DNA of 64,000 nucleotides from assembly GCA_017634065.1 (NCBI GenBank), contig JAGBOC010000011.1:60412-124411 (forward strand), in the 5' to 3' direction. The notes beneath the pieces were generated by a model. That model had not been told where the DNA came from and made no database searches. It saw only the letters and a list, made by a program, of their open reading frames with translations. The stretch is from Lachnospiraceae bacterium. GTDB taxonomy: Bacteria; Bacillota; Clostridia; Lachnospirales; Lachnospiraceae. Within the stretch, counting starts at the first letter, position 1. Every line of letters starts with the position of its first letter. A program made the translations under genes and the position numbers. Positions 10,205 through 17,044 of the stretch are shown one piece after another.

Positions 10205-10813
10205 ATGATAAAAAATATAATATTTGATATGGGTAATGTGCTTATAGATTTTAATCCTATGCAGTATGTAGGTGAGCTTCATCTCGCGAATAAGGAAGAA
10301 GAAGAAAAAGTATTTAAGGCAGCCTATCTCAATTTTAAATCTATATATATGGATTACGGAAGAATTACTGAAGAAGAGTTTGTAAATCATGTAGTAGAAG
10401 GTATAGGGGAAGAATATCGAGATAAGATAAAAGAGTTGATAATCAACTGGCATAAGTACCTAACACCGATAAAAGGTATGGAGGAGATAGTTAAAGAACT
10501 TAAAGACAAAGGCTATAAGATATATCTTTTGTCAAATGCAGGATTTTCTCAACACGACTATTGGGATAGAATCCCAGCAAGTAAATATTTTGATGGAAAA
10601 GTAGTATCCTGCGATGTTGGCGAAGTTAAACCATTTAGAGAAATATATGAGGCACTTTATAAGAAGTTTAACATAAAGCCAGAAGAGAGTTTCTTCATCG
10701 ATGATTTAATTATCAATGTTTTTGGTGCAAATAGAACTGGCATGGAAGGCTATGTATTTACAGGAAGTGCCGAAGACTTGCGAAAAGAGTTAGTTAGAAG
10801 GGGAATATTATAA
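10205..10813 (+). CDS. HAD-superfamily hydrolase (subfamily IA-like)
   Basis: Motif I 'IIFDMGNVLIDF', motif II 'LLSNA', C-terminal 'FIDD'. Confidence 0.8.
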   Translation: MIKNIIFDMGNVLIDFNPMQYVGELHLANKEEEEKVFKAAYLNFKSIYMDYGRITEEEFVNHVVEGIGEEYRDKIKELIINWHKYLTPIKGMEEIVKELKDKGYKIYLLSNAGFSQHDYWDRIPASKYFDGKVVSCDVGEVKPFREIYEALYKKFNIKPEESFFIDDLIINVFGANRTGMEGYVFTGSAEDLRKELVRRGIL

Positions 10814-10879
10814 TAAGTTGTAAAGTTAAAACTTTGTAATTATTAAAAGCAAAAAATCATTCTATTTTGTATCATAATA

Positions 10880-11009
10880 AGTTGAAAAGTAGCCAGAATT
10901 TGTGCAAAAAATAGCAAAATATCATCCAGATTTATGTCAAAATTAGTTAAAACATCGTCCGAATTTGTGTCAAAATTAGTTGAAAAGTCGTCCGAATTTG
11001 TGTATAATC
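10880..11009 (+). repeat. Four tandem ~32-33-nt promoter-like direct repeats
   Basis: Units begin at 10880, 10913, 10945 and 10978. Consensus is about AGTTGAAAAGTCGTCCGAATTTGTGTCAAAATT. Confidence 0.85.
10980..11008 (+). promoter_or_regulatory. Consensus sigma-A-type promoter within the last repeat unit
   Basis: TTGAAA (10980-10985), 17-nt spacer, TATAAT (11003-11008), 8 nt before the ATPase ATG region. Confidence 0.6.
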
Positions 11010-11015
11010 AGGAGT

Positions 11016-12314
11016 ATGAAAAGAGAAATATTAGAAAAACTAGCTAATTGGAAGAATAGTAAAAATAGAAAGCCCTTGATTCTGAATGGTGCGAGGCAAG
11101 TTGGAAAGACCTATATACTTAAAGAGTTTGGGGCAAAATACTTTGATAATGTTTGCTATATAGACTTTAGTAGTAATGAGAGTTACAAAAATATTTTTGA
11201 AAAAGATTTTAATATTGAGCGAATAATTACTGAATTTAATGCAATTACTTCAACAAAAATAATGAGAGGCAAAACTCTTATTATTTTGGATGAAATACAA
11301 GAGGCTCCAAGAGCAATTACTTCGCTAAAATATTTTTGCGAAAATGAAAATGAATATGTAGTTGCATGTGCAGGTTCATTACTTGGAGTTGCAATACATA
11401 AAAATACATCATTTCCAGTTGGAAAAGTAAACTTAATGACAATGTTTCCTCTGACATTTATTGAGTTTTTAGAAGCAATGGGCAAAGAAGGATTAGCAAA
11501 ATTGCTTCAAGATGGCAATTACGAGAGTATAAATGATTTATCAGAAGATTATAATGCACTTCTAAAACAATATATAATAGTTGGAGGAATGCCAGAAGTT
11601 GTAAAGGAATTTGTAGAGAACAAAGATTTTACAGAAGTAAGAAATATACAAAAAGAAATTCTTAAAATGTATGATAATGATTTTAGTAAACACATAATTA
11701 ATCAAAATGAGTTATTAAAAACAAGGCAGGTGTTTACTACAATTCCAAGAGAATTAGCAAAAGAAAATAAAAAGTTTGTTTTGAGAGATATGGAGAAAGG
11801 TGCGAGACTCTCAAAATATGAAGTTGCTATTCAATGGCTTGTTGATGCTGGTGTGGTTTACAAAATACACAATGTTGATAAAATTGGAATACCACTATCT
11901 GCTTATAAAAAAATGGAAAACTTCAAAATCTATTTAGTCGATGTAGGATTATTAGGTGCAATGAGCAATCTTGATTATGCAGTGATTATTGAAGAAAATA
12001 GATTATTTGTTGAATTTAAAGGTGCACTAGCAGAACAATATATTTGTCAGGAATTAATGTATAGGTATCAAGATGAATTGTTTTTTTATTCAGATAGCAA
12101 ATCTGAAATGGAAGTAGATTTTATGATTCAGTCAAGAAATGAGCCTATCCCAATAGAAGTTAAATCAGGCAGTGTAGTTCAAGCAAAAAGTTTAAAACAA
12201 TATATAAAGAAGTATAAACCAAGTTATGCAGTTAGATTTAGTTTACTTAAGAACAAATATGATGAAACTATAAAAAATTATTCACTTTGGTCGGTGCCGA
12301 ATCAAATATTATAA
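11016..12314 (+). CDS. AAA+ ATPase with C-terminal DUF4143 / PD-(D/E)xK-like module
   Basis: Walker A 'GARQVGKTY', Walker B 'LIILDEIQ', C-terminal 'EVDFMI....PIPIEVKSG'. Start at ATG 11016 behind 'ggag'. Confidence 0.8.
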   Translation: MKREILEKLANWKNSKNRKPLILNGARQVGKTYILKEFGAKYFDNVCYIDFSSNESYKNIFEKDFNIERIITEFNAITSTKIMRGKTLIILDEIQEAPRAITSLKYFCENENEYVVACAGSLLGVAIHKNTSFPVGKVNLMTMFPLTFIEFLEAMGKEGLAKLLQDGNYESINDLSEDYNALLKQYIIVGGMPEVVKEFVENKDFTEVRNIQKEILKMYDNDFSKHIINQNELLKTRQVFTTIPRELAKENKKFVLRDMEKGARLSKYEVAIQWLVDAGVVYKIHNVDKIGIPLSAYKKMENFKIYLVDVGLLGAMSNLDYAVIIEENRLFVEFKGALAEQYICQELMYRYQDELFFYSDSKSEMEVDFMIQSRNEPIPIEVKSGSVVQAKSLKQYIKKYKPSYAVRFSLLKNKYDETIKNYSLWSVPNQIL

Positions 12315-12353
12315 ATATAAATTGTTAGATAAAACATTAAAGGGGAAATAATT

Positions 12354-13131
12354 ATGGATATGTTAGCAAAATATAAAGTAGTAGCAAAAAGATACGAGGA
12401 TATGCTTATGAATACTGAAGGCGCTTTAGGCGTAATGCACCTGGGGGGGGGTGGCAAGAGAACGCGCTGATGAACATTCTGACATTGACATTGCTGTATT
12501 TTCTTATGACAAACTTGATATTAAAGAAGGAGAGCAATTATCTGAAGAAGGATATGATGTTGAAATTTTTAATATTTGCATAAATAAAGGATTTGATGAC
12601 TGGGATCCTATCAAAAAAGAAGCATATGCTGAAGGAATTATTGCAAGAGATACAAATGGTATTGTTAAAGACTTTATGGATAAAGCTCTTTTTTATGACG
12701 AAGAGTTTAGATGTAGGTATTTAGCAAAAAATATATTTGATATTGCTTGGCACGGTTGGATTTATACACCATTTAGGAATCAAAATGTAAAAGGATATAA
12801 TTGGATTTTGCCAAATAACTTATGGCATCAAAGAGGAGAAATAAGTAATGATTACTATTTAACGAATTGGTGTATCAATAGTTTTATAGAATTGTTATTT
12901 GTAGTAAATAGAAAGTGGACTCCTGATTTTAAATGGAGATGGATTCGCTCTTGTCACTTAGAAAAATTACCAAGTAATTATAAAGAAAATATGAGTTATT
13001 TATTGTTTGAACCTTGGAATGAAGATACTTGGCTACAAAAGGGAAAGGTTTTCCAAAGGATGATTGATGAAGTAATACCGATGGTAATTGATGACATGCC
13101 TGAAGACTGGTATAACTTATTGGAGCACTAA
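12354..13131 (+). pseudogene. Pol-beta-type nucleotidyltransferase-domain gene interrupted by a +1 frameshift at a G9 tract (or phase-OFF state)
   Basis: ATG 12354 with RBS 'aagggg'. The frame stops at TGA 12468. The downstream frame (ORF 12451..13131) reads 'ARERADEHSDIDIAVF'. Removing one G from G9 (12443-12451) fuses them to '...GALGVMHLGGVARERADEHSDIDIAVF'. Confidence 0.75.
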
Positions 13132-13149
13132 TAGTTGAATGGAGTTTAT

Positions 13150-16100
13150 ATGGAAACAAATAAAGTATTCATTTCTCATCAACATAATAATGATGATATA
13201 GCAAATAAAGTTTTGTCAGCATTAGAGAATAGTGGTTTAGAGTGTTTTGTTGATCATATGCATATTCCTGACGGTAAGAATTGGAGTGACAGAATTGAAA
13301 AGGAATTAACCGAATGCAAATATTTTATTTTGATAAACTCTGAATATACTGTAGGGTCAAATGGTTGTTATGTTGAATTAGATAGAGCAAAACAAGCAAA
13401 AAAACAAATTATTATATTAAAACTTGGCGACTTCAAGGAAGATTATAAGTGGGACGTTTTGCTTACTGCAGTTCAGGTGACACAAATTACAGAAGATAGA
13501 GTATATGATATTGTCAAGAATAAAGTTGTACCTAGTTTCATAGGGTCACAGCAAAAAAATGAAGTAAATAAAATGACCATAGATGAGTTTAACAATGTAG
13601 AGATTGATAAACTGAAAAACGATTCTTCTGAAACATATTTGAGAACATCTTTTAATGATTTTGTTGATTTAGCAATTAAGGGAAATGAGAGATTATCAAT
13701 TATTAAATATAAACAAAATTGTGAGTATGAAGATAATCTATACACAAAATTAATAAATATAAAGAATGATGAAGTAAAATTCATCTATTGCAACTCAATA
13801 GCATCTGTTGATTTATCAATTAATTTGATTGCTGAACAAAAACAGGAAGAGGTTTATTATTTATTTATAAAGAGCATTAATGAAATTGATGGACTAAATA
13901 AGATACATAGCTTAATTCAGAATCATAAAAATATAAACTTTATAATTGGAATTAATTTAGAATCATGGATAGATTTTAATAACGAATTTAATGATGCCAG
14001 GTGTCTTGTTTTTGATAAAATGTCTAATAAAGAAACGATAGAATATTTAAAACAGTTAGAAAAGGAAGAAGGGCTAAATATAGGTGGCAATTTACAAACA
14101 ATATTTTTGTTACCAGCGCTTCATGATTTTAGGACTCCAAAGTTACTAAAGATTATTATTAATTACATAAAGAAAAATTATTCGTCTTACAATGATTCGG
14201 ATTTTAATTTGACAGATATTTTTGATTTTTATGATAAATATTTAGAAACCAATGTTAAAGCAAATGAAGCATTTGAAGAATTGATTAGTATTGCTATAAA
14301 AAAGAAATTCAATGTTTTTACTCTTACAGAATTTGCAGATAATAAAAATGTATTATTCGAGAATGAATTAGTGACAAAAAAGGGGATTAATTATAAAATA
14401 GGAAATGAAGAGTATTTTCTACATAGAGTTGCTATGCATATTTTTACAACATATGGTTCTAATTACGAGGAATCATCAGTATTAGCAATAAAGGATTCTA
14501 TTCCTTATTATATATATTTATATTATAGCGAAACTCATGAATTAATACTCGACAAATTTAAATTGGATGAGCAAAATATTAGTAAACTATTACAATTATT
14601 CATTAGTGAGGAAGAAGCATTTACTAGTATAGTTTTATCAAGAAAATATGACACAGAAATTGTAAAACTGCTAAATGAAATTAATGAAAAAGGATTGTAT
14701 AATATTTCTGAAAGAATAATTAGTATTTTTGAAAAAGAAGGTATAGACCCAAGTGAAGAACTTGATTATTTATCTGCTAAAATTGAGATGCATTATAATA
14801 TGACAGATGAATTACTTGAAACTGATGCTGAATTTGGTAATGTATTGGCTGAAAAGGCGTATATTTGTTATCAAACAGATAATTTTACTAAAGCAGGTGA
14901 ATTATTTGATAAAGCAATTGACAAAATGCTTGATGCAAATCAAACTAATTATAAACTTATATTTAATTATATAGAGTATCTATTTGATTTTGGTGACTAT
15001 AACAAAATTGAAGAATTACTTAATTATGTAGATAATGAAGACATTAAGTCAAGTGATGACTTGCTAATTAAGTATTATTATAGTCAGGCTGAATTAGATG
15101 GATATCGTTTGGAGATAGATTCATGCCTTTATAATTTAGAGAAATGCATATCTTTGTGCGAAAAGAATGTCAATATTGGTAAAATGCAGATTTATTATGG
15201 TGAAAAAGGATATTACTTAATGCTTAAAGGTAAATATGACGAATCTAAAAGATATAGTAGAATTAATTTGGAAATAGCAAAATCTTTAGGTAATTTTAAT
15301 GGAATGGTGGTGGCATCTATTAATCTTGCAATGTGCGAGTTAGCTTTACAAAACTTTGAACAAATGTATAAGTTAGTTTCATATGCCTTAGTATATGCAA
15401 AAAATGTTAGAAATTACTGGAGATATAGCGAGAGTTTTATGTATCTGTTACTATTGATAAAGGACAAGGATAAATTAGAAAACATTGATGAAATAATACC
15501 AAATGTAGATTCTGATATATTTAGAACATATATATATTTGTTATATTCATATTATTACTATATAAAAAAAGATATAGCACTTGCTAAAGAAAAAATTAAT
15601 ATTGCTATAAATTATTCAAATCAGATTGAAAATGTACAATTAAAAGAGATGGTAAAGGCATGGTCTAATTACATAAGCACTGAAAAAGTTGGAAATATTG
15701 ACAATGAGTTAAGACAATATATGAATGATGTGATTGAATCATTAAATGCTTTAAGAATTGAAGAAAAAACATTTACTTTGCCACTAGAGTTTTATTTGTA
15801 TAAAGAACTAAATAGTGAACGACTAAAATATAGAATTATGAAAATTTCTGATATACCAGATATATTTGAATATTCTAGTAATAGTGAATGTACTAAATAT
15901 GTATTATTTGATAAGCACAAATCTTTTAATGATACTGCAAAGTTTGTTGCAAATGTATATGATGAAAATAATACTGGAACATATATGTGTTGGGCAGTAG
16001 AGCATAGAGAAGACAAGAAAGTTATTGGCACAATTGATTTGATATTAAGTGAAAGATATAATGAAATAGAAATAGGATATATATTTAATAAGAATTATTG

Positions 16101-16320
16101 GAGAAAAGGTTACGGAAGAGAGTCAGTAAAGACAATCGTTGACTATTGTAAAAATTGTTTGGGGCTCAAAAGTTTATTAGGTGTTGCTTTTGAAGTAAAT
16201 GAAGGATCAAGAAAATTGTTAGAATCTACAGGTTTTGTTGAATTTGAAAAAATAGAAAATTATCATAATAAAATATTACTTAAATCAAAAAATGGTGTAG
16301 CATACAGGCTTTTATTATAA
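13150..16320 (+). CDS. TIR-domain - helical/TPR scaffold - GNAT acetyltransferase fusion protein (1,056 aa)
   Basis: N-terminus 'KVFISHQH...GLECFVDHMHIPDGKNWSDRIEKEL.ECKYFILINS......GCYVELDRA' (TIR_2-like). C-terminus 'IGYIFNKNYWRKGYGRESVKTIVDYC...EVNEGSRKLLESTGF' (RimJ/RimL-type GNAT). No Walker A seen. Start at ATG 13150 after 'ggag'. Confidence 0.75.
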   Translation: METNKVFISHQHNNDDIANKVLSALENSGLECFVDHMHIPDGKNWSDRIEKELTECKYFILINSEYTVGSNGCYVELDRAKQAKKQIIILKLGDFKEDYKWDVLLTAVQVTQITEDRVYDIVKNKVVPSFIGSQQKNEVNKMTIDEFNNVEIDKLKNDSSETYLRTSFNDFVDLAIKGNERLSIIKYKQNCEYEDNLYTKLINIKNDEVKFIYCNSIASVDLSINLIAEQKQEEVYYLFIKSINEIDGLNKIHSLIQNHKNINFIIGINLESWIDFNNEFNDARCLVFDKMSNKETIEYLKQLEKEEGLNIGGNLQTIFLLPALHDFRTPKLLKIIINYIKKNYSSYNDSDFNLTDIFDFYDKYLETNVKANEAFEELISIAIKKKFNVFTLTEFADNKNVLFENELVTKKGINYKIGNEEYFLHRVAMHIFTTYGSNYEESSVLAIKDSIPYYIYLYYSETHELILDKFKLDEQNISKLLQLFISEEEAFTSIVLSRKYDTEIVKLLNEINEKGLYNISERIISIFEKEGIDPSEELDYLSAKIEMHYNMTDELLETDAEFGNVLAEKAYICYQTDNFTKAGELFDKAIDKMLDANQTNYKLIFNYIEYLFDFGDYNKIEELLNYVDNEDIKSSDDLLIKYYYSQAELDGYRLEIDSCLYNLEKCISLCEKNVNIGKMQIYYGEKGYYLMLKGKYDESKRYSRINLEIAKSLGNFNGMVVASINLAMCELALQNFEQMYKLVSYALVYAKNVRNYWRYSESFMYLLLLIKDKDKLENIDEIIPNVDSDIFRTYIYLLYSYYYYIKKDIALAKEKINIAINYSNQIENVQLKEMVKAWSNYISTEKVGNIDNELRQYMNDVIESLNALRIEEKTFTLPLEFYLYKELNSERLKYRIMKISDIPDIFEYSSNSECTKYVLFDKHKSFNDTAKFVANVYDENNTGTYMCWAVEHREDKKVIGTIDLILSERYNEIEIGYIFNKNYWRKGYGRESVKTIVDYCKNCLGLKSLLGVAFEVNEGSRKLLESTGFVEFEKIENYHNKILLKSKNGVAYRLLL

Positions 16321-16338
16321 TTAAGTTGTATGGTAAAG

Positions 16339-16464
16339 GTTAGAACAACCATTGTAGGGTCGAAGATTAGAACAACCATTGTAAGTGTGAAAATTAGAGC
16401 AACCATTGTAAGTGCGAAAATTAGAGAACCATTGTAGGGGCGAAGGTTTCCGAGCCCGAAAGGA
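16339..16464 (+). repeat. Tandem 27-nt repeat array ending in a GTAG-type element and CCCGAAAGGA
   Basis: Exact 27-nt periods at 16339, 16366 and 16393. Fourth unit (16420-) ends 'gtaggggcgaaggtttccgagcccgaaagga', 4 nt before the xpt ATG. Confidence 0.9.
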
Positions 16465-16468
16465 AAAT

Positions 16469-17044
16469 ATGCAAGAGTTAAAAGAAAAAATCTTAAAAGA
16501 AGGTAAGATTTGTCCAAATGATATAGTGAAAGTTGACTCATTTCTCAATCATCAAGTCGATGTTCACTTTCTAAAAAAAATTGGACAGGAGTTTAAGAAG
16601 AGATTTGAAGGAGCAGAGGTTAGTAAGGTTTTGACTATAGAATCTTCTGGCATAGCTATAGCTTGTTATACAGCGGAGGCATTTGACTGCAGACTTGTAT
16701 TTGCGAAAAAAGGTGTATCGCTTAATCAATCAGAGGATTTTTATGAGTCAAAAGTATTTTCTTATACAAGAAGAGAAGAGTATCCTATAAGAGTTTCAAA
16801 AGAGTTTTTAGGTAAAGATGATAAGGTTTTAGTCATAGATGATTTCCTTGCAAATGGAGCGGCACTTAATGGACTTATAGATATAGTGAAAAAATCAGGT
16901 GCTACCCTTGTCGGATGTGGAACTGTCATAGAAAAAGGATTTCAACCAGGTGGTAAAAGTTTAAGAGAAAAAGGCATAAGAGTTGAGTCACTTGCAATCA
17001 TTGAATCGACAGATGAAGTTAATCAGAAAATTACATTTCGTTAA
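16469..17044 (+). CDS. xpt: Xanthine phosphoribosyltransferase
   Basis: 'VKVDSFLNHQVD', 'TIESSGIA', 'VLVIDDFLANG', 'VIEKGFQPG'. Closely matches my recollection of Bacillus Xpt along its whole length. Confidence 0.93.
   Translation: MQELKEKILKEGKICPNDIVKVDSFLNHQVDVHFLKKIGQEFKKRFEGAEVSKVLTIESSGIAIACYTAEAFDCRLVFAKKGVSLNQSEDFYESKVFSYTRREEYPIRVSKEFLGKDDKVLVIDDFLANGAALNGLIDIVKKSGATLVGCGTVIEKGFQPGGKSLREKGIRVESLAIIESTDEVNQKITFR

Follow-up and report, generated by a model that had tools for sequence, protein, structure and literature searches.

We consider it reasonably probable that the 5.6-kb block separating a HAD-family hydrolase gene from xpt in an uncultured Clostridia species of the gut or rumen is a small defence islet that was inserted between these neighbours, is probably served by one promoter in its left tandem array and holds two independent modules: the candidate defence gene PDC-S01, and an Avs-like pair formed by a nucleotidyltransferase (NTase) and a TIR-STAND-TPR-GNAT protein. 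An earlier sequence-only reading survives here with respect to the insertion, the NTase-TIR pair and the KNTase type of the NTase, but not with respect to a three-gene unit, a CBASS/Thoeris logic or the tandem arrays as parts of a system. Coordinates below are those of the window, meaning the whole 64-kb stretch of DNA that was analysed, and every feature lies on its + strand.

Insertion between HAD and xpt

The block is real, horizontally inserted DNA, since the closest related species representative (L006) keeps HAD and xpt ~42 nt apart and thus preserves an empty site, bearing out the earlier suspicion of an insertion. Both flanks are core genes: the HAD-family hydrolase (10205-10813; Pfam HAD_2, 2e-17) has a 78% identical orthologue in L006 that directly adjoins xpt, and xpt itself (16469-17044) matches the xanthine phosphoribosyltransferase equivalog of NCBIfam at 2.5e-77. 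Synteny between L006 and the window extends over a small ORF, LRR, hrcA, HAD, xpt, FAD and selA. Within the block, the layout and co-orientation of the three genes and the gaps between them (39 nt at 12315-12353 and 18 nt at 13132-13149) were reproduced exactly as first described, and the reported AT-richness holds as well, with a GC content of 27.7% vs 33.5% window-wide. Of the 47 window ORFs (mean 34.0, sd 3.4), none is lower than the TIR-GNAT gene (25.8%); the ATPase (29.0%) and NTase (31.0%) genes are only mildly low, and GC3 differences in a codon-composition check were small. No recombinase was found within the islet.

Copies of an imperfect direct repeat of ~20 nt (repeat search family D20, and alignment) lie at both edges. 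The left copy, TATTATAATAAGTTGTAAAGT (10806-10826), overlaps the HAD stop codon, and the right copy, TTATTATAATTAAGTTGTATGG (16311-16332, found by alignment), overlaps the TIR-GNAT stop codon; a third copy occurs at 10870-10890, and a related motif, TATAAGTTATAAAGG, is present once in the empty site of L006. The window's TIR-GNAT protein ends in ..YRLLL vs ..YRKMLN or ..YRNMLK in its 73% homologues, a difference that would fit an insertion junction at the stop codon.

The edge arrays described previously are both present by TRF. The left one (10851-11003) is a degenerate 33 nt x 4.7 repeat with 66% matches, and its length is unchanged in 98%-identical lineages. Immediately before the ATPase RBS, its last unit forms a sigma-70-like promoter, TTGAAA-17-TATAAT (10980-11008), which is a consensus match only, at 11/12 positions, and the top scan score of the region; a scan for terminator-like sites between the island genes found none. 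Each left-array unit also resembles a -35/-10 pair. The right array (16336-16445; 27 nt x 4.1, 83% matches) lies in the xpt leader and is polymorphic, at three vs four copies, the spacer being 154 nt in the window vs 127/128 nt (minus one unit) in the 98% lineages. Its unit resembles, by eye, the native L006 spacer GGTTTAGAATAAAC, which has no tandem arrays, and the array has neither an Rfam match nor a stable fold (z = +1.64). Units of both arrays are confined to their arrays within the window (shuffle expectation 0.00 and 0.04 matches), and no comparable arrays flank the pair at 11 other loci or stand beside one 45%-identical PDC-S01 homologue. The arrays are junction or promoter sequence of one particular insertion, not components of either module.

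The NTase and its STAND-like partner

The largest gene of the islet (13150-16320) encodes a 1056-aa protein that Pfam, a structural model and fold searches divide into TIR, STAND-like NOD, helical/winged-helix, TPR and GNAT regions, of which the middle three are predicted to fill the ~750 residues between TIR and GNAT that were overlooked at first. The model, built from six sequences, is of moderate confidence (pLDDT 73), and its top PDB folds in Foldseek are the STAND-TPR protein 6mfv (1.7e-9), SIR2-STAND EfAvs5 (9jap), an AVAST5 filament (9nc9) and NLRP9/14. Because STAND proteins align with low TM-scores (0.12-0.31), we base the STAND assignment on E-values, topology and the order of domains.

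The TIR domain (aa 6-94, 13165-13431; Pfam TIR_2, 4e-16) is closest in sequence to those of SPARTA TIR-APAZ chains and Cat1. Its putative catalytic residue, Glu76 (..GCYVELD..), shares an alignment column with the Glu of their ..KEL.. or ..DEL.. motifs, which we take to be the catalytic position of TIR domains. The following beta-alpha-beta NOD (aa ~145-345, 13582-14184; model secondary structure and Foldseek) is without a Walker A motif: GxxxxGK[ST] was seen by eye after NOD strand 1 in 0/8 aligned homologues, the window sequence there being LSIIKYKQNCEYED. In the alignment, the Walker B acidic residue is also missing from the window's clade, which together with the lost Walker A excludes the canonical ATP-switch working of Avs proteins. 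TPR-like helical repeats, the presumed sensor (aa ~470-870, 14557-15759), are suggested by helical pairs in the model, an LGN/Pins TPR match (3e-9) and a sub-threshold Pfam TPR_12 hit. The C-terminal GNAT (aa 891-1030, 15820-16239) is an Acetyltransf_3 domain of RimJ/RimL/SpeG-like type (Pfam 6.6e-24; PDB 3fbu 2e-13, 2fck 1e-9) whose acetyl-CoA loop, WRKGYGRE, is conserved among aligned homologues. This architecture recalls Avs/AVAST STAND proteins such as SIR2-STAND Avs5 and TIR-NLR, with their exchangeable N-terminal effector (TIR, HD, nuclease), STAND-like core, helical/winged-helix region and C-terminal TPR-type sensor. Besides the missing Walker residues, the window family differs from them in its invariant C-terminal GNAT and its obligatorily linked NTase gene, and none of the PADLOC Avs/NLR models matches the large protein.

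The NTase gene (12354-13131) is frameshifted in the window, where it occupies two frames (12354 to ~12459, then 12451-13131). Removal of one G yields HLGGVARERADEHSDIDIAVFS, which equals the intact protein P0007 (258 aa) from other samples. Pfam Polbeta, NTP_transf_2 and DUF4037 are all sub-threshold, but the KNTase fold is supported by a model of pLDDT 96.6, whose best predicted fold matches are ANT(4')-Ia, ANT(4')-IIb and LinB (TM 0.50-0.65 over ~250 aligned columns). CdnC reaches only E 0.03 and TM 0.25, in agreement with the original call of a small KNTase-type enzyme and not a CD-NTase. Residues G31 G32 ... D43 I44 D45 are invariant across 32 homologues, and from this GG...DxD motif the intact form appears catalytically competent. 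Searches of phage and plasmid collections found no NTase homologues.

Homology searches indicate that these two genes form a rare, undescribed, conserved two-gene module, in keeping with the early remark that no known system explains the pairing. The NTase directly adjoins the large protein in about 10 further gene neighbourhoods (L045, L046/47, L048, L049, L050, L051-54, L055/56, L057-60, L069-75 and L096), at NTase identities from 87% down to 44%; the family amounts to ~20 full-length clusters per 1.84 billion representatives searched, and the pair is not covered by any model in PADLOC-DB 2.0. The N-terminal effector is swapped on a constant chassis, with two unrelated TIR types, HD-CE (P0054) and SMEK (P0056) each retaining the GNAT. 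At L096, where HD-CE stands in for the TIR and the two genes have swapped order, an NTase of 45% identity (8e-90) is still linked. Because the linkage persists through both changes, the NTase is tied to the STAND-TPR-GNAT chassis, not to the TIR. It has also diverged less than the large protein (87 vs 73%, 76 vs 42% and 54 vs 32% identity), the pattern one would expect when an enzyme is coupled to an arms-race sensor.

The same persistence disfavours the NTase-to-TIR signalling in the manner of CBASS or Thoeris that had been raised for this locus. The pair shares with those systems a TIR with a putative catalytic Glu, weak matches to PADLOC ThsB-type TIR models (3e-9) and an NTase gene adjoining a TIR protein, yet it lacks both a ThsA-like partner and any SAVED, STING or SLOG sensor. 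Short pAgo systems have only effector domains in common with it, namely the SPARTA-like TIR and, in one family member, SMEK, an APAZ-fused effector domain partnered with short pAgo (PMC10810196); the window family is without APAZ or Argonaute.

A poly-G tract of variable length

The NTase frame is broken by a tract of nine Gs (12443-12451; codons CTG GGG GGG GTG), the in-frame length being G8. The frameshift was correctly recognised from the outset, but rather than being fixed it is one length state among G8, 9, 10 and 12. In two 98%-identical lineages, four contigs carry G8 (L003/L063, which are one contig, L061, L062 and L064). Within the window lineage, the reading frame is lost in 5/5 sequences: the window itself and L066 have G9, L001/L065 (one contig) and L067 have G10, and L068 has G12, with G8 or G11 in none. 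The tract would thus be hypermutable, with G8 as the ON state and G9, G10 and G12 as OFF, and since G9 puts the NTase out of frame, the window probably carries the pair in a switched-off or disabled state.

A competing account, which we take seriously without favouring it, is that there is no programmed phase variation, and that the tract reflects an artefact of sequencing or assembling a homopolymer, or free drift in an NTase gene that was dead beforehand. Short-read data are prone to errors in long G runs, so that length differences could partly be Illumina or assembler error; some contigs may derive from the same samples, differently assembled; and five out-of-frame tracts in one lineage would also fit plain decay. 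Against this, assemblies of the window lineage differ in tract length alone over up to 20.6 kb, and G8 is stable in the four contigs noted above. Moreover, no other G or C run in the window exceeds 5, and the tract is built from the rarest codons (CTG 1%, GGG 5.9%, GTG 11.9%; joint usage ~4e-6), where NTase orthologues use TTAGGTGGAAT. Its codon make-up and uniqueness suggest that it is selected or at least maintained.

Competing readings and proposed mechanism

The tract also bears on whether the NTase restrains its partner. It is conceivable, though in our judgement unlikely, that it serves as a guard or antitoxin, as in Hailong HalB-HalA or type VII MntA-HepT, holding the TIR effector off through an inhibitory oligonucleotide or nucleotidylylation of the STAND protein until phage interference with that mark releases it. 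Hailong is likewise a two-gene operon, in which a small polymerase-beta-type NTase accompanies a separate effector; HalB is among the structural matches (E 2e-5) and a very weak sequence match, MntA matches the N-terminal domain, and a tight operon with a slowly evolving NTase would suit a housekeeping-like regulator. The fold match to HalB is weak, however (TM 0.32-0.39 vs 0.57-0.65 to ANT(4')-Ia), and the Hailong effector is a transmembrane channel, unlike the soluble TIR-STAND protein. HalB negatively regulates its effector partner, and loss of its activity is toxic (PMC13434031). G9, G10 and G12 alleles should therefore be toxic under such a scheme, unless the frameshift silences the downstream gene too, and yet they lie beside a fully intact TIR-STAND-GNAT gene in several samples or assemblies of the same strain. 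This apparent tolerance speaks against an essential antidote role for the NTase.

A non-immune role appears less likely still: the NTase and GNAT would be small-molecule modifiers acting in antibiotic, toxin or polyamine detoxification or on a metabolic signal, with the STAND, TPR and TIR regions as regulator. Aminoglycoside and lincosamide nucleotidyltransferases are the NTase's best structural matches, sharing its two-domain form of ~255 aa, and the GNAT's closest matches are spermidine and ribosomal-protein acetyltransferases; several pair neighbourhoods are metabolic (glycoside hydrolases, alanine racemase, epimerase), and distant NTP_transf_2+DUF4037 relatives occur in unrelated contexts. 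Identity to the ANT/LinB enzymes is nevertheless only 11-15%, and the NTase has an immune-receptor-like partner and no evident resistance context. Cycling of N-terminal TIR, HD-CE and SMEK domains is typical of abortive-infection proteins and not of resistance enzymes, because TIR and SMEK are APAZ-fused effectors in short-Argonaute defence. The distribution is also patchy and island-like, with defence-like neighbours at some loci, such as SLFN/AlbA_2, TIR, RelB/PIN, Bro-N and an integrase at L045 and two integrases at L051.

The remaining gene of the islet, an AAA_14 ATPase with a DUF4143 (PD-(D/E)xK) domain (11016-12314; Pfam 2.5e-27 and 1.6e-33), is an independent, stand-alone module and a very common candidate defence gene. 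It matches the single-gene PADLOC candidate PDC-S01 over its full length (model PDLC04786, 1.2e-168), with identical ATPase and PD-(D/E)xK-superfamily architecture, and is set apart only by the upstream promoter region with its tandem repeats. Among single defence loci of rumen MAGs, PDC-S01 ranks first in frequency (PMC13356809), and it has been described as an ATPase-PD-(D/E)xK fusion, with validation pending and no demonstrated anti-phage activity (PMC12988326). The proposal that all three genes act as one system bounded by the arrays is largely refuted and very improbable: co-oriented, tightly packed genes behind one strong promoter-like site, all three present in every observed strain of the window species, do speak for it, but the ATPase adjoins the pair in that species only, tblastn found no homologue at any other pair locus, 45%-identical homologues annotated 'ATP-binding protein' stand alone on Bacteroides plasmids, and the arrays are missing from the other pair loci and from a PDC-S01 homologue.

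The NTase/STAND pair is most likely an Avs-like abortive-infection module in its own right. The large protein is built like an Avs/AVAST STAND immune receptor, with an effector, a P-loop-less oligomerisation core, a TPR sensor and a GNAT, and its TIR, given the putative catalytic glutamate, is probably an NADase. An infection cue would be sensed by the TPR/GNAT end, whereupon the protein would oligomerise and bring its TIR domains together, and the clustered TIRs would degrade NAD+ so that the infected cell aborts. The roles of the NTase and GNAT, as the chassis's invariant enzymatic partners, are conjectural; most likely, they create, read or edit a mark, either covalent or a small molecule, that permits activation, in which case the NTase would be a positive component of the module.

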